A stretch of DNA of 64,000 nucleotides, from NCBI GenBank assembly GCA_964490895.1, contig CAZBEI010000118.1:482-64481 (forward strand), read 5' to 3'. A program made the translations under genes and the position numbers. The notes below the pieces were generated by a model that was given only the letters and a program-made list of their open reading frames with translations, had not been told where the DNA came from and did not search any database. The DNA is from an uncultured Bdellovibrio sp. GTDB taxonomy: Bacteria > Bdellovibrionota > UBA1018. How positions within the stretch are numbered: position 1 is the first letter of the stretch; the number at the start of each line of letters is the position of its first letter. Shown here in pieces: positions 12,378-62,957 of this stretch.

Positions 12378-14504
12378 TCAAATACTACAATCCAGGGCTC
12401 CGGGTTCAAAGACTTTCCCCAACATCTCGCTTGTCTTTTTTCGAAGCGATTGGATATTTTCTTTCGTCTTTGCTTGAGCAGACGCGCTTGACTTTAAGCC
12501 AATTTCAGCTTCAAAGCTTGTATCACAAAGATGAGCTCTGAGAGTTGAGAGGACATATGCCTTCACACCTGCTACCGAAGACGGGCGCTCTCCACCCGTA
12601 AAGAAGCCAGTCCACTTTGCACCAGTTGCCTCGGCGCTAAGTACATAGGCCCCAACTCCGGTCAAAGAGACTTCCAGTTCTCTTTTCATATCATCCAGAT
12701 TCCAAATGGGTGCGCTTGCACTGCCTCTTTCGATCAAGAGATCTACCGCATGCGTGAGACGGCCATCAAAAAATCCAAATGGATCAGAAGTCGCATCATC
12801 TTTGGAACACTCTGCAGATTTTGAAGGACTGGCCAAATTCACAACGTCTTCGTCTGTGCAAAACCAATCGCTATGAGTGGGCAAAACACCTGTATAGCCA
12901 TAGGCCACAGCCATTTCGTCATAAAGACCGACATGATCTAAGTGCCTAAAGCTACGGCCCAAGTACTCCATGATGGAGCGAGAAACTTTGCCTAACTCAA
13001 GTTCCTTGTCAGCACCTAAGTTGCCTCTAAAATTATGACGTAACCCAATGTTATGGCCCAATTCGTGCGTGATTATGTCATGAAAATAGCCTTCCATATA
13101 GGTTTCGAACGTAAAACCCTCGGGTGGATTCTCAAAATCTGTTCTCTGCATGATGGGATCTTCTAACGAGGGATCTTGCGAACGTATGGCAAGCTCCAGC
13201 TCTGAGCCTAGTTTTAGCTGGTAAGTGACAGAGTTTTTATCCGCTTCCATTTGGTCCAATCCGTGTGGGCCACTGTGGGGGAGAACTCCGCCCTCTTGCA
13301 ATTTAAACCACTCCCTGTACATCTCTACAATGTGCGGGCCTTGAACCAATACATTTGCACTAAAATTTTCGCCTGTGTATTGATTGGCAATCGAAGGACC
13401 TAATCCCCCGTAGGGTGCTCTGTTCAATAAATCCCATTCAATAATATTGTACCGAATATCTCCTGCCACTAAAAGCGCACTCCTAGGATCTGTGGATGAA
13501 ATAAATTCGTAATTAAATATTTTCTTACCTGTAATTTTCAGGAATCTTTCGTTCCATTCTTCGAATGCACTCACAAATCCCTTTTGAAATTCTGCAGGCA
13601 CGTTTTTAACGTAATACTTAACCCCGTCCATACGAGCATCCAGATCAAATCGTTCAATGAGAGGAGTCTTATTTCGCTTCGTTAAAAAGAAACCCACTTC
13701 CGGAACTGCTTTTCGGGTGACAAAACTTGGATTAAAAATGTCCCCAAGTTTCAAATACCAACGATTGGTGATGACAGTCTCTGGAGCATTGGGATCAGTG
13801 GCTGTCAGCTCGACCAAATGGGCCTCCACATCAAAGACCAAAGTGTTTTTCGAAAAATCAAAACTTACCACTTGGCTTTTGACGGACTTAAACTTAGCTA
13901 AGATAGGATCGCCTTTCCGAATAGCCACTAAGTCTAAAAGATCTCCCAAATGCGAAAGATCTAAAACCACCGCTTTTTTGAGAGGATCAAGAGCCACCAC
14001 CGGAATCCCCATCAGTTCTTTTTTGACCGCTCCATCAGAACAATTTCCATCGCAATTTAAAACTTTAAGCAAAGTTTGGCCAAATAAAAGGGGTTTATCC
14101 ACTCGAGTACTCACTAAAAGAGAAGGGAGGTCGGCCAACTTTAATCTCCCAAGAGTTTCGTCTGTTTTATTAGAAACTTTGATGATCACTCCACCAAAAA
14201 CCATGGTTTGACCCACTAAACTTTGCGGCATACTAAACTGCAGCGAAGTCGAATCCAAAACAGGCGGCCGTCTGCGGCGGGCGCTAGGAGAACTTGGAAG
14301 CTCAAAAACTCGATTTTCAAGTTTTTCTTTGACCGCTTCACCCCCTAAAATCTGAAACTGATATTGGTCATTTCCTATAGTTTTATCGACCCTTGGATCC
14401 CCCGCTACAACCACATTTCGAGCAAGATCATTGTCAGAGTTTTTTGGTGCACAACCCGCTAAAAAGACACCTACGCCTAGCAATAATATATGACTTGTTT
14501 TCAT
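12378..14504 (-). CDS. zinc metalloprotease lipoprotein, metzincin type
   Basis: 708 aa with lipoprotein signal MKTSHILLLGVGVFLAGC and an extended zinc-binding motif HELGHNIGLRHNF (HExxHxxGxxH). Confidence 0.65.
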   Translation of the reverse strand: MKTSHILLLGVGVFLAGCAPKNSDNDLARNVVVAGDPRVDKTIGNDQYQFQILGGEAVKEKLENRVFELPSSPSARRRRPPVLDSTSLQFSMPQSLVGQTMVFGGVIIKVSNKTDETLGRLKLADLPSLLVSTRVDKPLLFGQTLLKVLNCDGNCSDGAVKKELMGIPVVALDPLKKAVVLDLSHLGDLLDLVAIRKGDPILAKFKSVKSQVVSFDFSKNTLVFDVEAHLVELTATDPNAPETVITNRWYLKLGDIFNPSFVTRKAVPEVGFFLTKRNKTPLIERFDLDARMDGVKYYVKNVPAEFQKGFVSAFEEWNERFLKITGKKIFNYEFISSTDPRSALLVAGDIRYNIIEWDLLNRAPYGGLGPSIANQYTGENFSANVLVQGPHIVEMYREWFKLQEGGVLPHSGPHGLDQMEADKNSVTYQLKLGSELELAIRSQDPSLEDPIMQRTDFENPPEGFTFETYMEGYFHDIITHELGHNIGLRHNFRGNLGADKELELGKVSRSIMEYLGRSFRHLDHVGLYDEMAVAYGYTGVLPTHSDWFCTDEDVVNLASPSKSAECSKDDATSDPFGFFDGRLTHAVDLLIERGSASAPIWNLDDMKRELEVSLTGVGAYVLSAEATGAKWTGFFTGGERPSSVAGVKAYVLSTLRAHLCDTSFEAEIGLKSSASAQAKTKENIQSLRKKTSEMLGKVFEPGALDCSI

Positions 14505-14680
14505 CTTCCCCCCCTGTTCTGATGAAACTACACCTAAATTTTAGATCCCCCACGGCCTCACTTGCCTCTCACACACTGCCTGAGACAAGCTAAGCTGATA
14601 TCACTACCCTTATTTATTTAAAAAGAAAAGCCCCCCCGAAAAATAATTTTAAATCCCTACTATTACAATAATGCGATGCG

Positions 14681-15697
14681 CTATCCTGCCAAAATTTTCA
14701 TTGCAGGAAACCGGTTTTCCAACATTTTCCGAATCACAAACTGATTTTCTTTAGGCATTAAAACATGCACATTGGGGCCTGCATCGGCTGTGACAACAAA
14801 AGACCAATCTGAATTTTTTAGAGACTCTTCTAAAAATTTTAAAATTTCGTGAGTCTCATCATTCCAATAGGTAAAAGAGGGCTTTGCCGTATGAAAAAGA
14901 GAGTGCATGTCCCACATTTCATCCCAAGTTATTTTAGAAACCGTTTTTATATCTCCGTTTTTTAAAGCTGGGATTATTTTTTTGACTCTCTTGGCAACTC
15001 GCTCTCCTCGAAGCCCCCAGTGAGGTGAGGATTTTACTCTCTCGTGTGCCTCTGTAGAAGAAATTGATTTGGCTTCTTCGCTTACCATTAAAACCAAATC
15101 AACCATTTCAGGCATATTTGTAATAAGGGGAGTGACTTCTGCTTTGTGCCAGTGCACCCAGGGACCATAAAAACTCCGACAAGAACTCCCCGAGCCTTGG
15201 CGAGAAAGACAAGCCAAAGCAGATTTAATTTTGGGGTCAGAAAAAAAAGCGTCTTCCTCAAAATTCAAAACACCCAAACATGCTTTTGCTGCAACCAGTG
15301 TCAAAGCAGCAAACCCTGAGGCACTGGAGGCAAGCCCCACCGCTACGGGGAAATTATTTGTGGAACGGATTTTAATTCTTTTTTTTAAATAAAAAGAAAT
15401 GCAGCTTCCAGAAAAACCAAACTTACCTTTGAACAAAGGATCCATACCCCGAATCACTCTCAAAACATGATCTTTTATTTTTTGAGTCGACTGAGCACTG
15501 AGAGCTGGGCTCTGATTTTCTTTGACCCAAACGACTTCGAACACAGGACTCTCAAGCACGCTGAGCTCAGTCTCAGTATAAAACGAATGGAGCGTCAGAG
15601 AAATGCTATCATTTGCTGGCAAGTTTAAAAGCGAGTCTTCTTTGCCCATGTATTTGATGAGAGCAATGTTTGAGGGGGCTTGTGCTTTAAAAATCAT
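14681..15697 (-). CDS. mvaD: diphosphomevalonate decarboxylase (mevalonate pathway, GHMP kinase family)
   Basis: 338 aa. The N-terminus APSNIALIKYMGKED matches the MVD signature (APVNIAVIKYWGKRD), and a GHMP motif GLASSASGFAAL is present. Confidence 0.75.
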   Translation of the reverse strand: MIFKAQAPSNIALIKYMGKEDSLLNLPANDSISLTLHSFYTETELSVLESPVFEVVWVKENQSPALSAQSTQKIKDHVLRVIRGMDPLFKGKFGFSGSCISFYLKKRIKIRSTNNFPVAVGLASSASGFAALTLVAAKACLGVLNFEEDAFFSDPKIKSALACLSRQGSGSSCRSFYGPWVHWHKAEVTPLITNMPEMVDLVLMVSEEAKSISSTEAHERVKSSPHWGLRGERVAKRVKKIIPALKNGDIKTVSKITWDEMWDMHSLFHTAKPSFTYWNDETHEILKFLEESLKNSDWSFVVTADAGPNVHVLMPKENQFVIRKMLENRFPAMKILAG

Positions 15698-15786
15698 GAT
15701 AAACTCAGTAATTCTAGGAAAACAGATACCACAACAACAAAAAATTTGTTATTGAGAAGCATCGACCCCACGGTGGGGCCACACAT

Positions 15787-15857
15787 GGGGCTATGGTGAA
15801 GGGGTATCACGCAGCAATCGCACTGCTGAGTCCCGAGTTCAATTCTCGGTAGCTCCA
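15787..15857 (+). tRNA. tRNA-Ala (anticodon CGC)
   Basis: Manual cloverleaf with 7-bp acceptor GGGGCTA/TAGCTCC including the G3:U70 Ala identity pair, D stem GTGA/TCAC, anticodon stem CAGCA/TGCTG with loop aTCGCac, T arm CCGAG-TTCAATT-CTCGG and discriminator A. CCA is not encoded. Confidence 0.8.
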
Positions 15858-15861
15858 AAAG

Positions 15862-17184
15862 TTAAATTTTCCAAAATGGATAGAACAATATTTTTTTGCT
15901 TTTGTTAAAATAAGGTGCACCTCCATAGAGCACCACTCCAAACGGGAGTTTCCATTTAGAAATGACACACTCGAGTAACTCTGTATTTTTTATTTCATTT
16001 AATTGATGCGTCTTCTTGACTTCTATGGGAACAAGTCGCTCCCCTAATTTAAATATAAAATCGATTTCACCGGGTAAAAAATCCAAGGAGTCATTTACAG
16101 CTTTATAGGCAAAGTTTTTGTAATAATAAATATTGGCTTTTAGAGGAAGTTTTTCCTGCAAAGCGTTGAGGCGCGAGTGCACATAGGCCTCCAGTCTATA
16201 TCCTGCTTCAGATTCCTTAAAATCCAAATGGGCTGTATAATAAGTCACTAGACTTGGGTCTATCCATGAATAAATTGCAAAATATGTTTTTTTAAGATTT
16301 TCATACTCTGCCAGGTAGGGCCTTTTTTTTATTAAGTACCCATGATTCAATAAGTGATCAATCACTTTGTCGACCCCATTGCGCTTAGAATTACGTAAAA
16401 CTTGATGGATCCCCTTATAGGTGAATTCTTTAGAATTCAAACTTGCCAAGTACTGTCTCACTTCGTCGTCTCTGGCTACTGTGGTTTCATAGTTTTCTGT
16501 AATGCCTCTTTCGGCTACCAGTTTGATCTCTTGGAGAGCGCGTTGCTCACCCTTTGCAAAAAAGGCCTTGGGCAGCCCTCCGTAGATCAAATACTGATCT
16601 AAAACAGGTACAATTTTCTGATCCCATTTTTCGGATTCAATCGATACCTCTTGCGGTGGAGTCCAGTCCGCTATGATCTTCTCAAATGGAGCCAACTCTT
16701 CTTGCAATGCTGAGGTGTTCATTATTTTCTTATGAACCAAAATTTCTTTCAAAGAAAAGGGTGTTAACGTCATGACTTCGGCTCGACGCTGAAGTCGGTT
16801 TTTTGCTTCAGTTTTTAAAAATGCAGGATGTGATCCTGAAACAATAAACGACACTTTAGCTTCGTCATAAGCAATCTTGACAGCATCAAAAATTTCCGGT
16901 TCTTTTTGGATCTCATCCACAAATAAGATCACCTTTTTTAGGCCACGAGAGTGAATTTCGTTCGAAATAAATCTGGTATTTTCTCTAATTTGTGACCTAA
17001 ACGCAACATCGTCACCTGTATATTGTAAAACATCAAAGCCTTTTTTCTCTAGTTTTTCTAAAAGTTTTGTAACGAGCGTTGTTTTTCCGCAGCCCACTAT
17101 TCCGGGTAATATAATTCCTGTAGGATGTTGGTCTAAAATCTTATTTTGAATTTGAAATAACAATTCGCGTTCTACAAAGTCCAT
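15862..17184 (-). CDS. AAA+ ATPase fused to a DUF4143 (PD-(D/E)xK-like) C-terminal domain, COG1373 family, paralog 1
   Basis: 440 aa with P-loop GIVGCGKTTLV, Walker B VILFVDEIQ and C-terminal EIDFIFKLGERLVPIEVKK (D...E-x-K). The stop codon is 4 nt downstream of the tRNA-Ala 3' end. Confidence 0.7.
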   Translation of the reverse strand: MDFVERELLFQIQNKILDQHPTGIILPGIVGCGKTTLVTKLLEKLEKKGFDVLQYTGDDVAFRSQIRENTRFISNEIHSRGLKKVILFVDEIQKEPEIFDAVKIAYDEAKVSFIVSGSHPAFLKTEAKNRLQRRAEVMTLTPFSLKEILVHKKIMNTSALQEELAPFEKIIADWTPPQEVSIESEKWDQKIVPVLDQYLIYGGLPKAFFAKGEQRALQEIKLVAERGITENYETTVARDDEVRQYLASLNSKEFTYKGIHQVLRNSKRNGVDKVIDHLLNHGYLIKKRPYLAEYENLKKTYFAIYSWIDPSLVTYYTAHLDFKESEAGYRLEAYVHSRLNALQEKLPLKANIYYYKNFAYKAVNDSLDFLPGEIDFIFKLGERLVPIEVKKTHQLNEIKNTELLECVISKWKLPFGVVLYGGAPYFNKSKKILFYPFWKI

Positions 17185-17260
17185 GCTTATCTATAAATAT
17201 CTCATTTTATTTCTAGATTTACAAGTAAATTAGATATTTAATTTTTAAATTTATACCCCT

Positions 17261-18142
17261 TTATCTAGGCACGAACCCACGCATCTTGGGGATTGTTTCG
17301 TGGCAATCCACAGGCGGGTAGTTAATAAACTCGAGGAGTTGGAGCCTCTCCTCTGCACCGGTCAAAACCAGTGGGGTTCCACCAGCTCTGGGTGCTGGGG
17401 CGTTTGCATTCACCTCAGTCTTTAACCCAGTCCAAAGGTCGATAAAATAAAGTTCAGTGTTCTGGGTATTATTTGTTTTGTCATTGATCACCCCAGCAAT
17501 TTGGACATTCATTTCCTGGATATCGTCGATGCAAATAGATTGAGTGGTTCGCGGATTTTGGTCACTATGTACAATGATAATAGAAAGACCAGGTCGGTTT
17601 GGATCTCTGCAGGGGATATCTGCCGCTCTGATCGAGTCTTGTACTGTGTTCCCAGCTACTGTATTCGCAGGGATATCAATCATTGCGTTGTTTAAGACGT
17701 TAAACTGACAACACAAAATAAAAACTTGGTCTATGGGAGGATTGGGGTTAAGTGCTGCTGGAGGCACTGTGCGTCTTTCTCTAAAAGCAAATCTGTCATT
17801 AAAGCAAACTCTCATGTCTCCTCTCAACACAATGGCTCCTTGTCCGGCAATTCGGTATGTGTTTAGATTATCTGGCGTTGCATCATTTGGTGGGTGAGGA
17901 GCTCCTGGTGGAAGTTGTGTAAACACTACTGTTTCCGCTCTCCTAAATGCATAATCAATCACTCCGTGGAGAGTGTCTTTGCCAAACTCAAAGCTCCCAA
18001 TATTTTCTGTGCTTTTGCTTAATTGCGAAACTTGCTTGAGTTGTTGAGTGGCAACAAGGGCTACAATAACTGCCAATCCCGATGCAATAATCACTTCGGC
18101 AATGGTAAATCCAGAAGTACCTAAGGCTTCTTTCTTTTTCAA
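17261..18142 (-). CDS. type IV pilin-like / pseudopilin protein with prepilin N-terminus
   Basis: 293 aa. The N-terminus GTSG|FTIAEVIIASGLAVIVALVA fits a class III signal with Gly-1, Phe+1, Glu+5 and a hydrophobic helix. Confidence 0.6.
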   Translation of the reverse strand: MKKKEALGTSGFTIAEVIIASGLAVIVALVATQQLKQVSQLSKSTENIGSFEFGKDTLHGVIDYAFRRAETVVFTQLPPGAPHPPNDATPDNLNTYRIAGQGAIVLRGDMRVCFNDRFAFRERRTVPPAALNPNPPIDQVFILCCQFNVLNNAMIDIPANTVAGNTVQDSIRAADIPCRDPNRPGLSIIIVHSDQNPRTTQSICIDDIQEMNVQIAGVINDKTNNTQNTELYFIDLWTGLKTEVNANAPAPRAGGTPLVLTGAEERLQLLEFINYPPVDCHETIPKMRGFVPR

Positions 18143-19263
18143 TGGATGACCACCTCTGAGTTATAAGCAGCTGGGACGGGATCAGGGATTGGTCTTACGT
18201 TGAGATCAGCATTTATAGGTCTATTTTGATCCCATGAATATTGAAAAGTCCTAATATTAACCGTAATAATATCCCCCAAATTATTTACTGCAGCCACAGC
18301 TGCAGCCGACTGGAAAGTAAAGCGAAGCTCACTCCGGATGGCTCGACCTGGCGGTGCGTCTGGTCCAAGTGCAGGAATATTTCCTGAACTCGGAAATAAG
18401 TTGTCGATAATGATTGTGTTTACAAAATTACCGACAGTGACTTCATCTAAAAAAATTCTGGGAATTTTCTGACCCAATCGAGATCCAAAATAAAATGGAC
18501 TTACAATCGGATAGGGGCTGGGAGCGGGGACTGGAGGCGGGTTGGGCACGCCGCTAAATAAAATTGTAAAGTTGTTAAAATCTAAGTTTCTTGCTAAATC
18601 GGAGTTAGTAAATCCAGCAAATCCTGGGTTTGCACCATTATGACAACTGATGCAATTTGCAAGTGGGTTGCCCATGATTGCTCGAATTTTTTGGTCGGGG
18701 GGAGGTTGAGGATTGGGTCCATCAAAAAAATCTTGATCCAGGTTTCCCCTCTGTCTTCCACCAGCGCGACTAGAAAGTGTCCAGGCCTGAATTCGATTTG
18801 CTAATAATCGCCACGCTCTCCTTTCAATAACATTGGGTGGCTGATGGAGATTAAAGGGTCCAACTGTAAGATTGATAGGATTAATTTCACATCGATGAGT
18901 TACAGGATTTAATCTAATATAAGGATGTAAGACTTTAATATTCCCCGGACCACCTCTGTCGGAGTCATCATTACAAGCAGTAGGAGGGTTCTGGATCGGC
19001 AGATATCCTCCCGGCAGCGGTGGGGGTAGATCTGCCTGGTGACACGGATCTTGGCACATCCAATATAGAATCGTGTCTTTAGAGGTCGCTTTTATCAGAT
19101 TCTGGATTGCAAAATTTTCACGGATGATCTCGGAGTGGCTTCGAGACATTTTCTGAAATTTTACGGTATGCGTGGTTAAAATCGAAAACGCCAGAGCTCC
19201 CACAATCAGGACAGTAGCCCCGATTAAAACCTCTACAATGGTAAACCCTCTCTTATTACTCAT
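18139..19263 (-). CDS. large type IV pilin-like / minor pilin-like protein
   Basis: 374 aa with N-terminus KRG|FTIVEVLIGATVLIVGALAF, a Pro/Asn/Gly-rich body and a CISCH (CxxCH) motif. It overlaps the downstream pilin-like gene by 4 nt. Confidence 0.6.
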   Translation of the reverse strand: MSNKRGFTIVEVLIGATVLIVGALAFSILTTHTVKFQKMSRSHSEIIRENFAIQNLIKATSKDTILYWMCQDPCHQADLPPPLPGGYLPIQNPPTACNDDSDRGGPGNIKVLHPYIRLNPVTHRCEINPINLTVGPFNLHQPPNVIERRAWRLLANRIQAWTLSSRAGGRQRGNLDQDFFDGPNPQPPPDQKIRAIMGNPLANCISCHNGANPGFAGFTNSDLARNLDFNNFTILFSGVPNPPPVPAPSPYPIVSPFYFGSRLGQKIPRIFLDEVTVGNFVNTIIIDNLFPSSGNIPALGPDAPPGRAIRSELRFTFQSAAAVAAVNNLGDIITVNIRTFQYSWDQNRPINADLNVRPIPDPVPAAYNSEVVIH

Positions 19264-19467
19264 TAAAAACCACTCACGTTTTTTTAAATTAAAATTACTT
19301 ATTAATGCCGCCCCATTTGCAGTATGGTATTATTTTAGTATAATATTATATAAAGGTTAAGTCTTTTTTTATAAGGGGTGGAATTAAATGAAATCACATC
19401 AAAAAGGCAGCGTGCTACTGATGGTCCTCGGCATCTTGGAAGTGGGCATTAGGGAGTTAAATAGGAT

Positions 19468-19893
19468 TCATGAAAGCACGTTAAACCCTTCTTTAATCGC
19501 CGCCCTTGCAAGTTGTTCATCAAATGTCACAAAATTGAGTCTGCTTGGGTGATCATCACAGGCCACTAAGGCTGCGGCGAGTTGAAGCGAATCAGAAGCC
19601 TGCAAAACATGTGCTCCTAAAAGTCGTTCAGCCTTTTTTTTAACTTGGGTGGTATGAGTGACCTCCATCCAAAGGCGGTCTAGTTTTTTTAGGTTTTTAA
19701 AACATCCCTTTAAAACCACTTCGGAAAGTTGTTTTGTCCTTTCTCTTCGATAAAGAGCAGAGAGGCATTCTACAGAAGTAAAACACCAAACCACAATTTT
19801 TTTAGTTTGTCCTAAGAGCTCAAGAGAGTGAGGGGTTCTTGTCTCTTCGACTAAAAGAGGAACAACAGCAGAGGAGTCCCAAAAGGTGATCAT
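19468..19893 (-). CDS. vapC: PIN-domain toxin (VapC-like)
   Basis: 141 aa with conserved acidic residues at FWDSSA, ASDSLQLAAA and FVTFDEQL, overlapping the upstream antitoxin by 4 nt. Confidence 0.65.
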   Translation of the reverse strand: MITFWDSSAVVPLLVEETRTPHSLELLGQTKKIVVWCFTSVECLSALYRRERTKQLSEVVLKGCFKNLKKLDRLWMEVTHTTQVKKKAERLLGAHVLQASDSLQLAAALVACDDHPSRLNFVTFDEQLARAAIKEGFNVLS

Positions 19894-20234
19894 CTCCCCT
19901 CTCTACGATCTTTTAAGAGCTGCTCTAAAACCCCAGCAGGGCCACTCCCACAGGAGATGTTTTTTTTAAGTTCATCTATCACAGCCCGATTTAACACCCC
20001 TTTTCCGCGTGAGATCATCCCCTTTGTCTCTAATTGCTGCAAATAGACTTCTTCTTCATTGTATAAAAATTTTTCGATCGGAGTAATTTCTGCAATGGGT
20101 GTGTTTCGTTCAAAAACACGTACAGTTTCGCCTTTTTTTACAAGGACAAGAAATTCGCTGAGGTGATTTTTTAGTTCTGCTATATTGGCCTTTCTCATAT
20201 AGCTATGATAGCTATATTTAGAGCTCGAAGTCAA
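19890..20234 (-). CDS. Phd/YefM-family antitoxin
   Basis: The segment ANIAELKNHLSEFLVLVKKGETVRVFERNTPIAEITPIE is Phd/YefM-like. The true start is probably the internal Met at about 20198. Confidence 0.55.
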   Translation of the reverse strand: MTSSSKYSYHSYMRKANIAELKNHLSEFLVLVKKGETVRVFERNTPIAEITPIEKFLYNEEEVYLQQLETKGMISRGKGVLNRAVIDELKKNISCGSGPAGVLEQLLKDRREGR

Positions 20235-20280
20235 TGGGAATTTCAGTCAGTCTGGCTGGAGATGCTGTTCCTTTTGGTGT

Positions 20281-20411
20281 TTAAATTAGGCAATAACATT
20301 AGCAGCTTAAAACATCATTTGACGAAAACGGTGCATTTATTTATTATATAACGATAGTTCAAGTGCTTTATTGGGGGACGTATGAAGTCAGGGGTGCTAA
20401 AAATAATAAAC
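20281..20411 (+). repeat. partial, diverged copy of the ~170-bp promoter-plus-start repeat (copy A0)
   Basis: Carries TTGACG-N17-TATTAT and ATG AAG TCA GGG GTG CTA AAA ATA ATA AAC (MKSGVLKIIN), matching the start of the 793-aa gene at 22670. The reading frame is cut after 10 codons by the MITE. Confidence 0.6.
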
Positions 20412-20988
20412 GTGACTGTTCAGCCTCATTCTTCAGGCTCGGTGTAAAAACTACGGCGGCCATTCCGGTGTGGGCCAGTTATTTTGAAATAAAATATAAA
20501 GAAACTCTTGGATGTTTTTCTGAAAGTATCTTTTAATACCCACAAGATCTCTTCCCCACTCCACAATTCGAGACCAAGCGAGATCATCCCAAAAGCGTTT
20601 TAGGGCTGGCTGCCCCTTCTTTGCTCCTGTCATCACTCGGGCAATGAGGCCTGTTCTTTTCTCTGCTTCTTAAAGAAAGGAAAATGCATCTGTTTTTCTT
20701 GTTTTTTCATTCGCCTGTCCCGGTTGTGTTGTATAGGATACGAGCAATGTTATTTCAACCCTATTTTTTTATCCAATGGTCTAATTATTTTATTTTAAAA
20801 ACATAGTAATTTTTCATTTTGTAAACTTTTGCAAACATTTATAAACTTTTTCACAGCTTTTTATGCTGTGCGAACACACATGCACTTGTAAGGCCTGAAA
20901 ATATCTTTTTTTTATAAGTCCACCCCGGGGGCCACCGGGGGTCTATCGCTTTTTAAACCAAGCCTGCAGAATGAGGCTGAACAGTCAC
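20412..20988. mobile_element. non-autonomous MITE-like element with ~40-bp imperfect terminal inverted repeats
   Basis: Left end GTGACTGTTCAGCCTCATTCTTCAGGCTCGGTGTAAAAAC, right end ...AAACCAAGCCTGCAGAATGAGGCTGAACAGTCAC as its inverted complement. Length is 577 bp, the only internal ORF is a 61-aa one without motifs, and there is a GC-rich palindromic core (CCCCGGGGGCCACCGGGGG). Confidence 0.6.
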
Positions 20989-21014
20989 GGTTTTTTTTAT
21001 TATTTTCAAGCGCT

Positions 21015-21184
21015 GGGCTCTCAATCGATACCATGAAAGAGGTCGATGAAAAATTAAAACACGTTCTTGATCTTAACTAATTAAGCAATAAAATAAACAA
21101 CCTAGGAGGATTGTTGACTGACTTAAGTTAGTTATTTATTATATATAAATATAGTTCAGATATTTTATTGGGGAACGTATGAGA
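21015..21184 (+). repeat. ~170-bp direct repeat copy A1 (flanks ATPase paralog 2 on one side)
   Basis: About 90% identical to 22511..22680, including TTGACT-N17-TATTAT and an ATG. Here the ATG opens only a 9-codon ORF. Confidence 0.7.
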
Positions 21185-21204
21185 GATGGCTATGTGGCTT
21201 TTGG

Positions 21205-22386
21205 CTAACTCCAATAACTCCACGGCAAAAGACAGACTCCCTGTTTCGGAAGATGGACGGTATTGACAGGGGCGAGAAGAACAGCCCGTTTGACTCCAAG
21301 AGCCTTCATAGCGCCTGTCAAGCTGCGCGCATGGTACTCCATTTGAGAAGGGGCAATTGTTTCGCTCATGATTTTTATCGGTATGTTTTGCCAAACAAGA
21401 TCAATCACAGGACCATGAATGCTTTTATAATAATTTTTACGCATCACAAACCTTTGGTACTCATTAAAACAAAAGATCTCGTTTAATAAATAATGCCTAG
21501 CAATAGAGAGACTGACTTCTGGTCCAGTTTTTATTGGGGAAAGATGGAATGCTAGCCCAGAATCTCCAAACATCCAATGGTCATTACCCACTCCAGGTTC
21601 CTGGACAGTAAATCTCCTGAGAAAAAAAATATTTTCAAGTGCCTGAATGTAACGTTTTGCTTTTCGCTTGTCACCTCTCACATAACTCAAGGAGGGATAA
21701 TCAGCGTTAGGAAGAGCTTTGGCTAGCATCTGAATTAACGAAAAACAATAATCAGGATCAAACCCCTTTCCGTAAGCACGCGCTGCATCGCGGACAATTG
21801 TTGTGTCAAGCCAGTTATTCCAATATTCCTTGCACATATTCTCGTCGCGAATAAAGGCAGGAACTGGGAGACCTCCTGATCTCATTTGCACAGACAAATC
21901 TTCAAACTTAAATCGTGGTGTCGAGGGAGACAGGAAGTGTGACTCATTTTTAATAGTTTTCTGAGATTGTTGATGGATTTCACCAAAACACATGGGGTAA
22001 AGATGCAACAAGCCAATTCTACCAGTTAATGATTCTCGAACACCTATTTTTTGTGAAAACGCAACTGATCCGGTCAAAAACCACTGGCCAGGGATTTTTT
22101 TTCTGTCTACCAGTGATTTAATCGAATCAAATAATAGGGGTGCTTTTTGAACTTCATCAAGTACGGTAGGGGATCCCTGGTGTCTACTTAGAAAAACGCG
22201 AGGTGCGGCTAGGGCTTCAGCTCTCATTTCTTCGTCATCAAAACTGAGATAGTTTTTAATCCCAATGCGATCTCTCAGCAAAGTAGATTTGCCAACCTGT
22301 CTCATCCCGAGTACTCCAACAATTGGCCAGAAACTAGCCATTTTTTTTATTTTTACCTCACTAAAACGAGGTCTTTGGTGTGGCAT
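21205..22386 (-). CDS. AAA+ ATPase with DUF4143-like domain, COG1373 family, paralog 2 (nuclease-like motif degenerate)
   Basis: 393 aa with P-loop GMRQVGKSTLL and Walker B TVLDEVQ. The C-terminal region VIDLVWQNIPIKIMSE lacks the E-x-K seen in the other three paralogs. Confidence 0.65.
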   Translation of the reverse strand: MPHQRPRFSEVKIKKMASFWPIVGVLGMRQVGKSTLLRDRIGIKNYLSFDDEEMRAEALAAPRVFLSRHQGSPTVLDEVQKAPLLFDSIKSLVDRKKIPGQWFLTGSVAFSQKIGVRESLTGRIGLLHLYPMCFGEIHQQSQKTIKNESHFLSPSTPRFKFEDLSVQMRSGGLPVPAFIRDENMCKEYWNNWLDTTIVRDAARAYGKGFDPDYCFSLIQMLAKALPNADYPSLSYVRGDKRKAKRYIQALENIFFLRRFTVQEPGVGNDHWMFGDSGLAFHLSPIKTGPEVSLSIARHYLLNEIFCFNEYQRFVMRKNYYKSIHGPVIDLVWQNIPIKIMSETIAPSQMEYHARSLTGAMKALGVKRAVLLAPVNTVHLPKQGVCLLPWSYWS

Positions 22387-22510
22387 AAGTAATATAAATA
22401 ATATGCACTGAGTTGAAAAAAAATGATAGCACTTTTTTAGACAATCACTCGGTTACACACCAGGGCTATTTATGCTTTAGAAAAGGCCCTTCTAAAAAAC
22501 CACATCATGC

Positions 22511-22680
22511 AGCTCTCAATCGATACCATGAAAGAGGTCGATGAAAAATTAAAACACGTTCTTGATCTTAACTAATTAGGCAATAAAATAAACAGCTTAG
22601 GAGGATTGTTGACTAATTTAAATTAGCTATTTATTATATATATAGTTCAGATATTTTATTGGGGGACGTATGAAATCAGG
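22511..22680 (+). repeat. ~170-bp direct repeat copy A2 (promoter, RBS and start of the fibrinogen-domain gene)
   Basis: Direct repeat of 21015..21184. It lies between the divergently oriented ATPase paralog 2 and the 793-aa gene. Confidence 0.7.
22609..22637 (+). promoter_or_regulatory. sigma-70-like promoter of the 793-aa gene
   Basis: TTGACT-17 nt-TATTAT about 30 nt upstream of the GGGGGA RBS and the ATG at 22670. The same architecture occurs in copies A1 (21114..21142) and A0. Confidence 0.5.
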
Positions 22681-25051
22681 GGCATTAAAAATAATAAATA
22701 TAATGACCAGAAACCACCGTGGGAATACCCTCATGCTTGCCCTCCTGTTTACGGGCGCAGCAAGCGTGATTGGCTTAGGTATATTGGCCGCTATTGAAAC
22801 AGGACGCAAGCAGCAGGGAATCCGGATTGAAGAGAGTAACCCAGCGGCATTTCTTTCCTTACTGACGGGTAAGACTATTGAGGACATTTCTAAAAATTAT
22901 TACTGCCCTCAAAAAAGCACCAATGAAACTATCACTTTTACTCAATTTTTTGATAAGCTGAGAACAGACGGAAAACTCAACTCTAGAGGCCATCTGTCTA
23001 TTCCTCTTTTAGGCAAGTCAGAATATCTCATTAAAACTCCCAATGGAGTAGTGAGATCAGAAATAGATCCAGCATCAGAGGTTGCACTAATAGGAGCTGG
23101 AACACCCAATGAGCAGCTGGTGATACAAATTACGGTATCACTCTGCAGGTATGCACAAGCTGCAGGAGTTGCATGTCCTCCTGCACTTATTCTCCCCTCA
23201 ACTGTTTATAAAGCTTATATTAATAACACGAAAATACTGGAGCCATGTGGGAGCGCATTGCCTACTCCAACTCCATTTCCTGCTTCTTTTGTATTTATTG
23301 ATTCTGCAACAAATCTGCCTGCGCAAAAAGACGGCGCAAATCATATCTTAGAAGTTGGGGAAAGATATTTTGTTTTAGCTTCGATTGGGAAACCACCAGG
23401 CACAAGTGTAAATTATATTGTGAATTTTTCTCCAAGCAGTGGACCCTACTTTCAGCTCACATCCACTGGAGCAACAGCTCTCGTAGATGCAAGCGGAAAA
23501 TTCAGAACTACAGATCTCCATTTTAATAGAAACGCAAATCCTAACCTCAATGTTCCTCCGGGTCCTTATATTGCAAGTGTTGGAATCGGGACAGACCCCG
23601 TCCTCACAACCCCTGTGGTCGTAGTTCAGCCTGCCTGTGTTAACACAAGAAAACCACAATCTTGTTTGCATCTATTAGAATTAGATCAGAGCAAAAAAAA
23701 TCAGGATGGAATTTATACTATCGACCCAAACCAAGATGGAAAAAATCTACCAGTTTATTGTGACATGACAACAGATGGAGGGGGGTGGACACTTTTTGCA
23801 AATAATAACAGTCCAGGTTTTCCTGGAGGATGTCTGAGTGGTTTAAACCCCACTTTAGCTCTTGGAACCGATAAACGGACTGTTAACGCTCTGGCCTCAA
23901 AACCACCAAACAGTGTTGCAAGAATGGTCATAAATGGAAGTGCATCTAACGGCCAACCCTTTTCCTTTGATGTAAAACAAAGTGGTCTAACAGGCGCATT
24001 TCAGCCCAATATGGGGTGCAATATACCTAGCGAAGGTAATGCTCTTTACCAAATTCCTAACTTTACTCAGGTTATTTCGCAATCAAATGCTCAGGTTAGT
24101 TCTGGAAGTAATCCACTGGGAGTGCGAGTGGACTCCGGGGGTACTGCCGATTTTCAAATTCTTGGAGGTAAAGGAATAAGAATTGGAACGGGATTTCCAC
24201 CCGTACTTCCCCCCCGAAAAGCAACGGGAATTCTTTGGATGCCACAGAGTAACCAAGCGCTTCCATATGCAAATCAAATGAATATCCGATGGTTATGTTA
24301 TAGCCCTCAAAATCTATGTCCGACACTCCATCCTGATACTGGAAATAGAGTGACTTCGATGCAGCTTTTTTACAGAGAAGATGTGGCTGATTTACCCGAG
24401 GATCCATGTATTCCTCCCGGAGCAGTTTTGTGTGAGCTAGCTCACGGAGGACCCGGCTCTCCTGGTGGGAGTGTTGCCTGTCCAGGCAGGAAGAAAATCT
24501 TAGGCGGTGGATTTAGATATTCGAGTGATGGGACTTTTCCGTATCAAAATGGTTGGGGAGCAACTGGTTACACAAGTGGAATACCCCGTGAAGCTTTTGC
24601 TATTTGCTGTAACCATGTGGGATCTCTTGATTTGAAGTCTGGACGACAGGTAAGCAATCTCTATCATAATGTAGCTTTTGCACCCATTCAGTGCGAAAGC
24701 GATGAAATCGCTGCGAGCGCAGGGGGGATTAGTTCTTCTGGTGGATCTGTGTCTTGCTCTCCTGATATGAACAATATTTCGAAATTTAATTGTAATATGG
24801 TAGCAATTCCAAACGACCTTTTTCTGTATGCGATGTGCTATAAGAAGCCTCCAATTCCGTCTAAATTTGAATGGATTAAATCTTCTGGTTCTGTTGCTAC
24901 ATGTAAATCAGGAACTAAACTTATTTCTGGCGGGTTTTCTTGCAGTACAGGAGTTTTTGGTGTTGGCTATGCTATTCCAAACTTAATCAACAACACCTAT
25001 TCCGTAAGCTGTGCTGGATCAACATATGCACTCTGTGTGGACGAAAATTAA
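22670..25051 (+). CDS. large secreted/anchored protein with a fibrinogen-related domain and duplicated Cys-rich C-terminal modules, probable adhesin/lectin
   Basis: 793 aa with a hydrophobic N-terminal anchor or signal. DGIYTIDPNQDGKNLPVYCDMTTDGGGWTLFANNN matches the fibrinogen C-terminal domain hallmark (VYCDM-TDGGGWTV). Two C-terminal repeats follow the pattern C.G.K.L.GGF...C. Confidence 0.7.
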   Translation: MKSGALKIINIMTRNHRGNTLMLALLFTGAASVIGLGILAAIETGRKQQGIRIEESNPAAFLSLLTGKTIEDISKNYYCPQKSTNETITFTQFFDKLRTDGKLNSRGHLSIPLLGKSEYLIKTPNGVVRSEIDPASEVALIGAGTPNEQLVIQITVSLCRYAQAAGVACPPALILPSTVYKAYINNTKILEPCGSALPTPTPFPASFVFIDSATNLPAQKDGANHILEVGERYFVLASIGKPPGTSVNYIVNFSPSSGPYFQLTSTGATALVDASGKFRTTDLHFNRNANPNLNVPPGPYIASVGIGTDPVLTTPVVVVQPACVNTRKPQSCLHLLELDQSKKNQDGIYTIDPNQDGKNLPVYCDMTTDGGGWTLFANNNSPGFPGGCLSGLNPTLALGTDKRTVNALASKPPNSVARMVINGSASNGQPFSFDVKQSGLTGAFQPNMGCNIPSEGNALYQIPNFTQVISQSNAQVSSGSNPLGVRVDSGGTADFQILGGKGIRIGTGFPPVLPPRKATGILWMPQSNQALPYANQMNIRWLCYSPQNLCPTLHPDTGNRVTSMQLFYREDVADLPEDPCIPPGAVLCELAHGGPGSPGGSVACPGRKKILGGGFRYSSDGTFPYQNGWGATGYTSGIPREAFAICCNHVGSLDLKSGRQVSNLYHNVAFAPIQCESDEIAASAGGISSSGGSVSCSPDMNNISKFNCNMVAIPNDLFLYAMCYKKPPIPSKFEWIKSSGSVATCKSGTKLISGGFSCSTGVFGVGYAIPNLINNTYSVSCAGSTYALCVDEN

Positions 25052-25121
25052 TCATGTTACTAGGAGTAAAAGTTTGAAAGTTGTGTAGAGCCAGGTTTTT
25101 TTTAAAATAAGGAGCTTATAA

Positions 25122-25523
25122 ATGAAAAAATATAGTTTTAATAATAGACAGCTTGTCCTAGTTTATGCCATTTTTTTGATGCTCAATCTTTTTATTAACA
25201 GTTTTTCGTACAGTGATGTTTCTCAAGTTTCTAATGTAATACCGAATAATGACATTGTGGTCCTTTGTGCAAAGGATCAAACAATGACACCAACGAAGTG
25301 TTTAGAAAGCTCTAAGCCCAGTTATACACAAGTGGGGTGTCAGGATTTAGCAAATGGTTCTTGTTCGGAAGTCGACACCAATATAAAATGTTTTCTTAAA
25401 AGCAGTAATTGCAAAGCTGTTCAAGAAAACAATAGAACTTGTCCAAATGAGTTTAGACTTGTAGATGCAATTGAAAATGTAACAAAATATTCTGTCTTTG
25501 TTGAACTCTGTATTAAAAACTAA
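25122..25523 (+). CDS. small secreted cysteine-rich protein (10 Cys)
   Basis: 133 aa with a signal peptide, a good RBS (AGGAG) and tight linkage to the fibrinogen-domain gene. Confidence 0.5.
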   Translation: MKKYSFNNRQLVLVYAIFLMLNLFINSFSYSDVSQVSNVIPNNDIVVLCAKDQTMTPTKCLESSKPSYTQVGCQDLANGSCSEVDTNIKCFLKSSNCKAVQENNRTCPNEFRLVDAIENVTKYSVFVELCIKN

Positions 25524-25527
25524 TATG

Positions 25528-25558
25528 CCTACTCCATCCTCACCAAAGGCTCCGGAAA
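25528..25558. repeat. 30-bp direct repeat, copy 1 (CCTACTCCATCCTCACCAAAGGCTCCGGAAA)
   Basis: Matches 26867..26897 at 28 of 30 positions. On the minus strand it lies in frame immediately after the ATPase paralog 3 stop and would encode SKFPEPLVRME*. Confidence 0.7.
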
Positions 25559-25564
25559 CTTGCT

Positions 25565-26782
25565 CTATATAAGAGCCTGTAAAAATTTCCAAGCTGGCAG
25601 AACCCGTATCCCTCCATTTTTATAGTCGCCATCTGAGTTGAGAACAACCTGGTAGCTTTCTTTAATTTCTAGTCGTGTATTAAAATAGATAAGTTGTGGA
25701 GAAATTGCCGTATCACTCACTTTTGCCTCAACAGTGAACCAAGGTTTGCCGTCACAGAGAACCAAAAAATCTACCTCTCTTTTTTCTTTGTCTCTTAAGT
25801 AACAAAGCTCCATTTTATAGCCGGCATAATCAGTATAGAAATGGCAAAACTTCAAAAGATGGCTTGCGACGAGATTTTCAAAACGAGCGCCTGGATTAGA
25901 AATGATGGCCCAATCCCAAAGATACATTTTGGGTTCCTTTTTAAGAGAGCGGGTTTTTTTAACTGCAAAGGGTCTCATTCGATACAAAAAATAAAGTCTC
26001 TCTAATATGTCAATCCAATGTGAAATGGCTTTGTGCGAAGTGTCCAAATCCTCTCTTAAGGAATTAATTGACAGTGGGGAACCGGCTCGAGAGGGTAAAA
26101 TATCACATAACGTTTCAATCCCAGATAAGTCAGGAAGATTTTCTAGATCTCGAATGTCTTCTTTAAAAAAACGGTCTAATCTTTCATTCTGCCAACGCCT
26201 CAACTTACGTTGACTTTTCTTTAAAAAAGGCTCTGGAAAACCGCCAAACTCTATTAAGTCTGATAAAGTAGAAATGCTTTCATTTTTTTTACTTAAATCT
26301 TTCGGAATCTGTAGTGGAGCAAATGGTACTATTTCCTTTTCGCCCGGTAGAGAGAGCCCGAGAGCCTCTGCTAAAGTAAAAGGGTGCATCCGATAGAGGT
26401 GGTATCTTCCCTGCATAGAGTCTCCTCCTTTGCGATACACGTCTAATCTTGCGCTTCCTGTCACTAAAAATTTTCTATCGTCTAGGTGTTTATCATAAAT
26501 ACCTTTGACGAAATTTTTCCATTTTTTGTATTTGTGAATTTCGTCAAAAATGATGACCTCGGCATCTGACTTCCAAAGTGACTTTAGAATTCTTTTTCGG
26601 TCTTCTCTGTTGTCCCAATTCAAATAATCCACTTGACTTGGGGAGAACAAATTTTTTGAAAAAAAGGTTTTTCCAACTTGTCTAGGACCTGCTAAAAAGA
26701 CCATCTTTTCTTTTAAATCCTCTAAAACTGGCTTTGATAAATATCTTTCCAATGGGCAATGTCCTTTCTCAAGTAAGCTCAA
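25565..26782 (-). CDS. AAA+ ATPase fused to a DUF4143 (PD-(D/E)xK-like) domain, COG1373 family, paralog 3
   Basis: 405 aa with P-loop GPRQVGKTFF, Walker B IIFDEIH and C-terminal EVDFLVLCDGKPWFTVEAKVS (D...E-x-K). Confidence 0.7.
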   Translation of the reverse strand: MSLLEKGHCPLERYLSKPVLEDLKEKMVFLAGPRQVGKTFFSKNLFSPSQVDYLNWDNREDRKRILKSLWKSDAEVIIFDEIHKYKKWKNFVKGIYDKHLDDRKFLVTGSARLDVYRKGGDSMQGRYHLYRMHPFTLAEALGLSLPGEKEIVPFAPLQIPKDLSKKNESISTLSDLIEFGGFPEPFLKKSQRKLRRWQNERLDRFFKEDIRDLENLPDLSGIETLCDILPSRAGSPLSINSLREDLDTSHKAISHWIDILERLYFLYRMRPFAVKKTRSLKKEPKMYLWDWAIISNPGARFENLVASHLLKFCHFYTDYAGYKMELCYLRDKEKREVDFLVLCDGKPWFTVEAKVSDTAISPQLIYFNTRLEIKESYQVVLNSDGDYKNGGIRVLPAWKFLQALI

Positions 26783-26823
26783 AGATAGGATACGACTTTT
26801 TTAGCCTATAGGCAAAATTATTC

Positions 26824-26858
26824 ATGACTTTTTTATCTAGTTGGATAAAAAAGTCATA
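26824..26858. terminator. perfect 14-bp stem hairpin (ATGACTTTTTTATC-tagttgg-GATAAAAAAGTCAT), probable bidirectional terminator or cassette-end structure
   Basis: Perfect inverted repeat with T/A runs, located between the peptidase stop (26868) and the ATPase paralog 3 start (26782). Confidence 0.5.
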
Positions 26859-26866
26859 GTCTGACC

Positions 26867-26897
26867 CCTACTCCATCCTCACCAAGGGCCCCGGAAA
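26867..26897. repeat. 30-bp direct repeat, copy 2 (CCTACTCCATCCTCACCAAGGGCCCCGGAAA)
   Basis: Encodes the C-terminal FPGPLVRME* of the C39-like peptidase and is a direct repeat of 25528..25558. Confidence 0.7.
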
Positions 26898-27512
26898 GGC
26901 ACCGAGCCCTTTGGCTCCCTTTATAAACACTCCCAAATGAGAATACCTCCAGAGTTTTCCGTGCCGGTCTTCGTAATCATGCCAGCGCTCTAAAAATTCG
27001 TCTTGCGGCAGATAGACGTACCCATGTGGCAACGAAGGATCCATCGTATAAATATACGTTTCGTCCATGGCGATCAAGACGACATAATGGCCCTCCTCCC
27101 AGGTTTCGCTCCAAGGCTTTTGAGGCTTCGACTCATCCCGCCAAGCTTGCAATGCTAAGATCACGGTTTCGCCTCGCAAAAGTGCTAAGCGCAAATCCGA
27201 AAGCTCCAGATTTTCTTTCATCTCTGCTTTTAGCCCATAATGCTTGGCTCCACTCAGCAGTTTTTGTGGTTCCGTGCCATCTTTTTTAGTTGTTTTGAGG
27301 AGAGAGTAGAGTTTTGTCTCAGGCCCACTGTAAACTCCCCAGTAATTCAAAACTCCAAGCAGCGCAGCAGCTCCACAGCTGTATTCGCGAGCTTGTCTAG
27401 TGATCGGTACGGGCAAGTGGTTTTTTGGCAAGAGTGGTTCTTGTGTGCCCACTTGGGCAAAACTATTTTGAATTCCAAGTAAAACACCTAGAAGCAACGC
27501 TATTTTTATCAA
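26868..27512 (-). CDS. secreted papain-like cysteine peptidase, C39-like
   Basis: 214 aa with a signal peptide, catalytic-Cys context QAREYSCGAAALLGVLNYWG and His region EEGHYVVLIAMDE. Confidence 0.6.
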   Translation of the reverse strand: MIKIALLLGVLLGIQNSFAQVGTQEPLLPKNHLPVPITRQAREYSCGAAALLGVLNYWGVYSGPETKLYSLLKTTKKDGTEPQKLLSGAKHYGLKAEMKENLELSDLRLALLRGETVILALQAWRDESKPQKPWSETWEEGHYVVLIAMDETYIYTMDPSLPHGYVYLPQDEFLERWHDYEDRHGKLWRYSHLGVFIKGAKGLGAFPGPLVRME

Positions 27513-27569
27513 GCTTTACCCCTCCCACTAAAACCATAATGGGACATTCAAAAAATCTCCACAAAAAAA

Positions 27570-28688
27570 CTACCAAAGTGCGGCTTTGAACCCTGGGATC
27601 CCAAAAGCTAGCAGAATAAAATTGGGAATCAGCATGGCTACGATAGGGTTAAAACTATAGTCAGAGGCAGCCATCGTGCCAACAGTGAGAGTGAGCCAAT
27701 AAACTAAAACGACACCCAAAGAAATCAGCACGGCTCCTGTTTTTACAGCTCGAGTACGGATAGTGCCATATCCAATTCCCAAAAAAACAAAGAAAAAAGG
27801 AGTGACCCCCACCATGTACCTTCTCCAAAGCTCTGTGAGATATTCTCGATAAACCCGAGTGTCTTTGGGGGTGTTGTGTACAAGGTGTTTCAATTCTGTA
27901 TAGGGGATCATTTTTGTTTTCCGAGTTGCAAAGCCAGAGCCCTCGTTGACTTCCAAGTAGAGTTGATATTCGTTAAAATCTATTTTTTGATAGGTGCGCT
28001 CTTCGAGATCGCTGCGATGAATGTTTCCAGAGTACAGTTTGAGGATCGCTGCAGCTCCAAGCTCAGTAGCTGGTTTCAGCAAAATAATCTCACCTTCTTT
28101 GGCGACAACGGTGACCGGAGTTTTAGGCTCTCTTTCATCATAAATAAAGACATTTTTGAGATGATTGGTGGCCGTATCAAAATGGTCTGTAAAAATAAGA
28201 AGGTCAAAAAAGCCACTCGTAAAAGCGCCTGCCCGAAGTGAGCTCACTGTTTTCGTTTCGCTCACTTTGATCAAAGTAGACTTAAATAACTGCTCCCCTC
28301 GTGGAACCCATTCTAAGTTCAGTCCCAGAGATAATAAAGAGATGATGAGTGCAAAAATAAAGACAGGGGCAGAAAGTCTTAAAACACTGATTCCAGAAGC
28401 CTTTAGCGCCACCAGTTCACTGTCAATTGAGAGTCTCCCAAAGGCGATCAAAATGCTGAGCAAGAAAGCAATGGGGAGAGCAAAGGGTAAAAAAGACAAC
28501 AGAAGCAAGGATGTCAATTTTGATAGAAGCAAAAAAGAAACCCCATGGACGATAAAAAATTCGGCCAATCTCAAAATTTGAAACATCAAAAAAATAAAGA
28601 GAAAAAAAAACACTCCCCCGAAAAAAGGCCCAATAATCTCTGAGAGGACATAAAAATCTGTGATTCTAAATCCCCACCTAGTACGCAT
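27570..28688 (-). CDS. LPS export ABC permease, LptF/LptG (YjgP/YjgQ) family
   Basis: 372 aa with six predicted TM segments and the typical N-terminus (FRITDFYVLSEIIGPFFGGV), followed by a periplasmic domain. Confidence 0.7.
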   Translation of the reverse strand: MRTRWGFRITDFYVLSEIIGPFFGGVFFFLFIFLMFQILRLAEFFIVHGVSFLLLSKLTSLLLLSFLPFALPIAFLLSILIAFGRLSIDSELVALKASGISVLRLSAPVFIFALIISLLSLGLNLEWVPRGEQLFKSTLIKVSETKTVSSLRAGAFTSGFFDLLIFTDHFDTATNHLKNVFIYDEREPKTPVTVVAKEGEIILLKPATELGAAAILKLYSGNIHRSDLEERTYQKIDFNEYQLYLEVNEGSGFATRKTKMIPYTELKHLVHNTPKDTRVYREYLTELWRRYMVGVTPFFFVFLGIGYGTIRTRAVKTGAVLISLGVVLVYWLTLTVGTMAASDYSFNPIVAMLIPNFILLAFGIPGFKAALW

Positions 28689-32946: not shown

Positions 32947-33059
32947 AGTCTTTTAGTTTTAAAAAATCCAAGTTTTTTCCTTGTCTGGCCTTGTTGCAAG
33001 CGACAGTTTAATGACAGAATAAAATACGCTCTCTCTAAAAGCCGCTTGGGGCATGGATC

Positions 33060-33168: not shown

Positions 33169-33169
33169 C

Positions 33170-62949: not shown

Positions 62950-62957
62950 TATAGCCC

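Follow-up and report, generated by a model that had tools for sequence, protein, structure and literature searches.

Probable piecemeal assembly of an accessory segment between tRNA-Ala and lptG in an uncultured Bdellovibrio sp.

A run of accessory genes that begins directly at the 3' end of a tRNA gene raises the question of whether it arrived as one integrated island or was put together in pieces. The run considered here lies in a stretch of 64,000 nucleotides from an uncultured Bdellovibrio sp. (the window), which represents essentially one metagenome-assembled NCBI contig of 65.2 kb. It covers 11.7 kb between tRNA-Ala(CGC) (15786-15858, plus strand; ARAGORN, and Rfam RF00005 with 58.1 bits) on its left border and the gene of an LptG/LptF-family permease, here lptG (27570-28688, minus strand; Pfam LptF_LptG, 2.7e-73), on its right border, where the core genes resume. 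The segment begins no more than 4 nt from the tRNA 3' end. An earlier note had described the segment as an old or degraded island at the tRNA, remodelled by cassettes and a miniature inverted-repeat transposable element (MITE). The accessory content was confirmed and the remodelling supported, but a single integration at the tRNA was not. The segment is probably a patchwork of independent gene-sized insertions, placed at gene termini in a surface-protein locus next to lptG.

Three ATPase genes of the segment are central to this interpretation. A1 (15862-17184), A2 (21205-22386) and A3 (25565-26782) are all located on the minus strand and encode AAA_14 ATPases of the PDC-S01 type. A fourth paralogue, A4 (51715-52878, plus strand), is found 24 kb away, outside the segment. 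All four proteins matched the PDC-S01 profile hidden Markov models of PADLOC, with E-values of 1.7e-25 for A1, 2.4e-45 for A2, 1.1e-47 for A3 and 6.8e-60 for A4. The AAA_14 domain of Pfam was assigned to all of them (2.5e-21 for A1), and the Pfam DUF4143 domain was reached by A3 (2.7e-24) and A4 (1.7e-34) and undetected in A1 and A2. The mutual identity of A1, A2 and A3 was only 22-30%. PDC-S01 combines an ATPase and a PD-(D/E)XK domain in one fusion (PMC12988326), and DUF4143 has been placed in the PD-(D/E)XK superfamily (PMC3424549). PDC-S01 ranks among the commonest candidate systems, but it was nominated by 'guilt-by-embedding' and lacks experimental validation (PMC12988326). Going by their family membership, the window ATPase genes would act as defence genes. 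A D...ExK motif was recognized by eye in A1 (IDF...IEVK), A3 (DFLV...VEAK) and A4, and was not visible in A2. In the A2 subfamily, also by eye, the aspartate of IDLV is kept and P-x-K-I appears to stand in place of the (V/I)E(A/V/I)K of A1, A3 and A4, so that this subfamily may have lost the acidic position of the PD-(D/E)XK motif. No solved relative of the ATPase was found in a search of the PDB.

The immediate surroundings of A2 and A3 have the appearance of insertions. A2 is contained in an insert of 1329 nt (21183-22511, minus strand), in which the open reading frame (ORF) is preceded by 125 nt and followed by 22 nt. The insert is bracketed by direct repeats of 166 nt (21017-21182 and 22512-22677, both plus strand) that are 92.8% identical with one indel, 131 nt of them at 95%. 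Each repeat represents the promoter region of the gene for a 793-aa surface protein, the adhesin (22670-25051, plus strand), and extends up to the 'ATGA' of its start codon. The left repeat is the second of three adhesin promoter copies and the right repeat is the third, functional one. The first copy, found together with the first 10 codons (20284-20410, plus strand), is old, about 65-83% identical depending on the stretch, and cut by an inverted-repeat element. A promoter-like TTGAC(G/T)-17-TATTAT is common to all three copies.

In the A3 insert (25559-26866, 1308 nt, minus strand) 84 nt precede the ORF and 6 nt follow it, and the insert is flanked by direct repeats at 25528-25558 (plus strand) and 26867-26897 with 29 of 31 nt identical, for which the chance expectation is about 4e-10. 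The right repeat is formed by the final 30 nt of the ORF of a C39-like peptidase, including its stop codon, and one base beyond. The left repeat is the distal copy of these last 31 nt of the C39 gene. When the A3 insert and one repeat were removed in silico, the C39 gene and the gene of a Cys-rich protein converged 5 nt apart. A 15-bp AT-rich perfect hairpin (ATGACTTTTTTATC...GATAAAAAAGTCAT) was observed at 26823-26858, in the 5' part of the A3 insert and 10 nt downstream of the C39 stop; it could be a terminator or an insulator carried by the unit. Only 3 nt separate the stop codon of A1 from the end of the tRNA, and the neighbouring gene begins 76 nt upstream of A1, which limits the A1 unit to 15859-17260 at most. 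A1 lacks a flanking repeat, the flank-repeat search having detected no more than 9 nt. A1 is a compact single-gene unit of the same type as the A2 and A3 units.

The element that cuts the first promoter copy is MITE-like (20398-21002). A repeat search gave arms at 20398-20450 and 20950-21002, thus terminal inverted repeats of 53 nt with 87% identity, around a non-coding interior of 499 nt whose ORFs had no Pfam match. Its flanks are AT-rich and partly inverted, the interrupted gene does not continue in the right flank, and no target-site duplication could be defined. A second copy, shortened to a hairpin (51299-51393), matched at 89-94%. This copy and A4, at 51.3-52.9 kb, lie outside the segment and were missing from the catalogue of the earlier note. 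Together they mark a second accessory islet (51299-52878), in which the hairpin copy is followed by a helix-turn-helix (HTH)-like gene fragment and then by A4. The fragment looks XRE-type (GISKQHLCDIEKGRKLVSPERAARY), with Pfam HTH_3/HTH_31 matches at E-values of only about 0.06-0.1.

Deletion of the insert and one repeat for both A2 and A3 left a compact promoter-adhesin-Cys-rich and C39-lptG arrangement. Taken together, A1, the MITE with the second promoter copy, A2 and A3 account for about 4.8 kb (41%). The remaining 6.9 kb hold a pilin pair, a PIN/Phd toxin-antitoxin pair, the promoter-adhesin-Cys-rich genes and C39-lptG. No direct repeats were found around the toxin-antitoxin pair or the pilin pair. 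In the favoured explanation, a backbone of envelope and surface genes with the PIN/Phd pair, beside lptG, would have been enlarged at gene boundaries by three very divergent single-gene ATPase units and the 0.6-kb inverted-repeat element. The ATPase units would have arrived singly, by gene-sized insertion. A possible route could be Campbell-type recombination of a circular intermediate carrying a copy of the target. The local target seen in duplicate is 166 nt of adhesin promoter around A2 and 31 nt of the C39 3' end around A3. The adjacency to the tRNA would then be due to the habit of the ATPase units to sit exactly at gene ends, and not to targeting by an integrase.

Related ATPase genes elsewhere were examined for the same geometry. 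Homologous loci, dereplicated at 80% protein identity, were combined with the four window genes, and for each ATPase ORF the 600 nt to its left were compared with the 600 nt to its right for direct repeats. As controls, 84 ORFs of 300-600 aa from the ATPase loci and the window were used. Repeats flanked 4 of the 37 ATPase loci and none of the 84 control ORFs, where no repeat exceeded 12 nt (Fisher p = 0.008). At one locus outside the window (L019, 425-1975) the ATPase was tightly bracketed by 71-nt repeats, 86% identical, which abut the stop of a convergent gene. At another (L048, 214-1803) the repeats were 76 nt long, 97% identical and made of the 3' end of the upstream ORF. The flanking repeat of one further locus (L052) consisted of two GC-rich terminator hairpins and was discarded. 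Units with sharp limits were also seen in a human-gut cluster of 24 members with 80-88% DNA identity (L045-L095, ATPase at about 2977-4200). Here homology extended beyond the ATPase ORF by only 47-124 nt on the upstream side and 0-25 nt on the downstream side, and the 3 kb of flanking sequence on each side were unrelated. A2 had its best match among 1.84 billion representative proteins at 59% identity and the next ones at 43-44%; the gene of the 59% homologue follows parA-parB in contigs of 35% GC, with flanks unlike those in the window. Members of the ATPase family occurred in 310 plasmid records and in only 6 of 50,697 phage records. A comparison of five delimited ATPase units revealed no terminal motif or inverted repeat in common.

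These observations could be extended to the family as a whole, although such an extension is speculative and, in our judgement, rather doubtful. AAA_14-DUF4143 genes would then travel as mobile single-gene units of about 1.3-1.45 kb that land exactly at gene termini and sometimes leave target repeats. Such a unit would comprise the ORF, about 50-190 nt of sequence before it and 0-70 nt after it, and would have stop codons, start codons and tRNA 3' ends as targets. Its repeats would be imperfect and 31-166 nt long, and no recombinase would be encoded except possibly the ATPase-nuclease itself. A literature search turned up no account of COG1373 or DUF4143 as mobile genes, nor of the repeat-bracketed insertion of AAA_14-DUF4143 genes. 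If the proposal is true, a candidate defence gene that is among the most abundant in prokaryotes would represent a type of mobile unit not described before, and the segment a site of its accumulation. The repeat-bracketed units with minimal flanks in unrelated metagenomes provide a testable handle on the spread of PDC-S01 within and between genomes.

An unlikely alternative, though one that accounts for several of the observations, is that nothing was acquired. The locus would then be ancestral chromosome in a lineage with many AAA_14 paralogues, and the repeats by-products of tandem duplication and deletion of adhesin and C39 paralogues. The native codon usage of the ATPase genes, which are old and divergent, agrees with this explanation, as does the lack of a cassette-end motif common to the units. 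The three promoter copies could likewise be relics of three tandem adhesin paralogues, the first of which retains 10 codons. However, the ATPase units are framed exactly by the repeats, and removal of a unit restores a simple junction. The same geometry recurred in unrelated metagenomes (L019 and L048) and in none of the control ORFs. Furthermore, the gut homologues are highly similar in DNA between unrelated flanks, and the nearest relative of A2 resides in a different context and GC background.

Integration of a single genomic island was considered improbable. According to this explanation, a tyrosine integrase would have inserted the island long ago at the tRNA-Ala 3' end, the integrase and the distal attachment site (att) would since have been lost, and the island remodelled. 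The start of the segment so close to the tRNA 3' end and its accessory-type content are what such an island would show. The same applies to the finding that the ATPase family was within 160 nt of a tRNA at 2 of 33 other loci vs. 0.2 expected. The earlier note had seen neither an integrase nor a direct repeat of a tRNA fragment, and this was borne out by domain scans and repeat searches. No integrase, integrase fragment or other recombinase was present in the scanned ORFs, which comprised all those of 110 aa or more in the segment and its flanks, other scanned ORFs of the window and small ORFs of the non-coding gaps. The largest non-coding gap is 970 nt long and is filled by the inverted-repeat element and the promoter copies; none of the gaps leaves room for a decayed integrase. 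With up to 3 mismatches allowed, the 3'-terminal 30 nt of the tRNA matched at no other place. Nor were tRNA fragments detected elsewhere in the window, on either strand, at 13 nt exact or at 15, 18 and 22 nt with 1, 2 and 4 mismatches, respectively. The partial tRNA-Ala 3' repeat that had been suggested near 27.5 kb was therefore absent, there as in the rest of the window.

The base composition gave a divided answer to the check proposed in the earlier note. The GC content of the segment was 40.5% vs. 43.1%, the third lowest of 210 stretches of the same size, and the tetranucleotide deviation peaked at 19-26 kb, inside the segment, as a single island would lead one to expect. The GC of coding sequence differed by only 2 points, and half of the dip could be explained by the larger non-coding share (15% in the segment vs. 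8% elsewhere). The codon usage was native except for the adhesin. Each of the other segment genes was within the core range (z -0.9 to 2.0; A1 -0.1, A2 -0.8, A3 1.6), and the adhesin, the sole outlier, had a z of 4.5. A comparable core ORF of 758 aa (42942-45218), which we take to be topoisomerase I, had a z of 3.9. Ten segment proteins were looked up among about 15 billion proteins. Nine were found, all as singletons at 90% identity, in keeping with an island; the exact adhesin sequence was absent there. The gene touching the tRNA, A1, is nevertheless an independent single-gene unit, and the C39 gene is only 57 nt from lptG and would have been contiguous with the adhesin genes prior to the insertion of A3. 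With integrase and att repeat both absent and the codon usage native, the claim of a single island is unsupported. Seen as an island, the segment would be a routine small flexible region in a deeply branching uncultured organism with its nearest matches in Bdellovibrionota.

An artefact of assembly or binning, with foreign DNA joined at the tRNA or at the repeats of a metagenome-assembled contig, is very hard to credit, since Logan assemblies of two independent runs reproduced 14207-15786, 24885-27322 and 26703-27726 at 100% identity, one contig (L015, run ERR4904393) crossing both A3 junctions, and since the repeats are imperfect, unlike k-mer artefacts, and codon usage is uniform across the window. 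A seemingly variant junction inside A3 in another Logan contig (L014, 1025-1045, run ERR3478687), the sole divergent tail observed, was rejected, as the 21-nt tail is the Illumina adapter AGATCGGAAGAGCGTCGTGTA.

The patchwork explanation is preferred to these alternatives, but several points weigh against it. When A2 and A3, from which the idea had arisen, were left out, repeats flanked 2 of 33 ATPase loci vs. 0 of 84 controls, and the p value rose to 0.08. Flanking repeats are lacking at A1 and A4. Those of A2 and A3 match imperfectly (93-94%) and differ greatly in length, and local duplications unrelated to insertion are conceivable. The near-lowest GC content and the strongest tetranucleotide deviation are also expected of an old, ameliorated island, and the backbone is called native solely on codon usage and contiguity. 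No matching empty site was available for any of the proposed insertions, the nearest relative of the neighbouring mvaD gene being 45% identical (best homologue among 5.8 billion protein clusters). Among GTDB species genomes the best mvaD homologue had 44% identity, in Bacteriovoracaceae and other Bdellovibrionota. At these distant mvaD loci (up to 44% identity) there was no tRNA-Ala near mvaD and no neighbour in common with the window. Strain variants with empty sites were not found either, as look-ups of the exact proteins led to nothing but short Logan contigs with the window sequence. The enrichment of the stretch in accessory-type genes, with three PDC-S01 candidates, a toxin-antitoxin pair and a MITE-like element, is supported. 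Adjacency to a tRNA together with accessory content is, however, insufficient for calling an integrative island, and here the internal repeats point to piecemeal assembly.

Each gene that the earlier note had listed after tRNA-Ala was confirmed by Pfam, NCBIfam, PADLOC or inspection of the translations. Two pilin-like proteins of 293 aa (17261-18142) and 374 aa (18139-19263) are encoded on the minus strand by genes overlapping by 4 nt. Their translations begin with GFTIAEVIIASGLAV (GFTIAEV) and KRGFTIVEVLIGATVL (KRGFTIVEV), and in both a pilin-type G|F-T-(L/I)-x-E motif followed by a hydrophobic helix was read. The 293-aa protein (codon-usage z 0.6) had no match in Pfam or NCBIfam. The 374-aa protein scored 21.1 bits with Pfam N_methyl, just below the cut-off of 21.2, and gave weak PilV/GspJ matches in NCBIfam. 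Upstream of the pilin pair, also on the minus strand, is a candidate toxin-antitoxin pair. The PIN-domain (VapC-like) toxin candidate (19468-19893) reached 20.5 bits with Pfam PIN (E-value 7.7e-4), under the cut-off of 23.6. The Phd/YefM-family antitoxin candidate (19890-20234) reached 24.1 bits with TIGR01552 (cut-off 20.8) and 29.5 with Pfam PhdYeFM (cut-off 29.8). The Phd gene is located upstream of the PIN gene and overlaps it by 4 nt; its true start is probably Met13, near 20198.

The adhesin matched NF040941 (8e-17) and Pfam Fibrinogen_C. Its fibrinogen-like YCDxxxxGGGW motif covers residues 331-378, its C-terminus is rich in Cys, and its N-terminus shows only a PilX-like RGNTLMLALLF, for which no family match was obtained. 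Homologues were limited to the fibrinogen-like motif of about 55 aa, the best named ones being from Halobacteriovorax marinus and Bdellovibrio. In the PDB the motif aligned with the N-terminal part of the FIBCD1, intelectin and ficolin domains. In other Bdellovibrionota-like contigs, proteins with the fibrinogen motif were found among core genes, and no conserved pilin-adhesin-C39 module was seen. The adjacent Cys-rich protein of 133 aa (25122-25523, plus strand) has a signal peptide and belongs to no known family; the GC content at third codon positions of its gene, 0.26, is the lowest in the window. The C39-like cysteine peptidase (26868-27512, minus strand; Pfam Peptidase_C39, 1.4e-13) is also secreted, judging from a signal peptide in the translation, and its gene follows lptG in the same orientation. 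Within the window the backbone genes have no paralogues. The backbone genes look like fast-evolving, lineage-typical surface proteins.

On the left side of tRNA-Ala are the genes for diphosphomevalonate decarboxylase, mvaD (14681-15697), a Met-zincin-like peptidase and a ferredoxin. The tRNA itself, the only one that ARAGORN and Rfam located in the window, has the G3:U70 pair as read from the sequence, and its CCA is not encoded. On the right side, the core was said in the earlier note to resume at about 27.5 kb with lptF/G, a sugar transferase, pepA and asnS. This was upheld for the sugar transferase and the following Peptidase_M17 (PepA), both by Pfam, and for asnS by eye, but there is a single LptF/LptG-family gene only. 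The 435-aa ORF at 31639-32946 is presumed from its sequence alone to be AsnS. Two perfect DnaA boxes (TTATCCACA, minus strand; 33138-33146 and 33160-33168) and one box with a mismatch (33060-33068) were observed in a gap of 34% GC (32947-33169) that separates the putative asnS from an HTH_25 (RodZ-like) gene. Cumulative GC skew is lowest at about 29-30 kb and changes sign there as at an origin, and the studied segment is 5-17 kb from the DnaA-box region. The gap is a possible replication origin or DnaA-regulated promoter. In distant relatives (L002, L003, L008 and L010) only a few kb separate mvaD from the homologues of two ORFs that the window has at 62197-63761, presumably mevalonate-pathway kinases. 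In the window these ORFs and mvaD are 47 kb apart, so the cluster is split. Tandem repeats were seen at 2064-2136, with five 12-nt units (TGCAGTCAGTGG-like) near two flagellin genes, and at 37906-37976, with three 21-nt units.

The segment can be compared with several known systems. The MITE-like element resembles MITEs in its 53-nt terminal inverted repeats, the lack of coding capacity and the presence of a second, shortened copy. It differs in that no target-site duplication is definable and in that just two copies could be seen within the 64 kb available. In relation to PDC-S01/COG1373, all four window ATPases match the models, and A3 and A4 also match DUF4143. In contrast, A1 and A2 remain below the Pfam DUF4143 threshold, and the A2 subfamily appears, by eye, to be without the acidic residue of (D/E)xK. 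The ATPase units are reminiscent of integron gene cassettes, being compact and single-gene, with almost no 3' flank and with successive insertion near a promoter. Unlike cassettes, they are accompanied by no IntI and share no attC-like site, and they occur in both orientations and at separate sites, each with its own upstream region of 84-190 nt.

Compared with tRNA-linked islands, such as P4-type integrase islands, pathogenicity islands and integrative and conjugative elements, the segment is without an integrase, a duplicated tRNA 3' part and a shift in codon usage, and its internal repeats indicate several separate insertions. It is similar to them in having accessory genes directly after the tRNA 3' end, a slightly lower GC content, and toxin-antitoxin and defence-type cargo. 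Defence islands, as reportedly described by Makarova et al. (2011), are clusters of defence genes with mobile elements. The segment differs from these in that it has no validated defence system and in that half of the region encodes surface proteins. It is like them in combining three PDC-S01 candidates, a PIN/Phd pair and a MITE within 11.7 kb.

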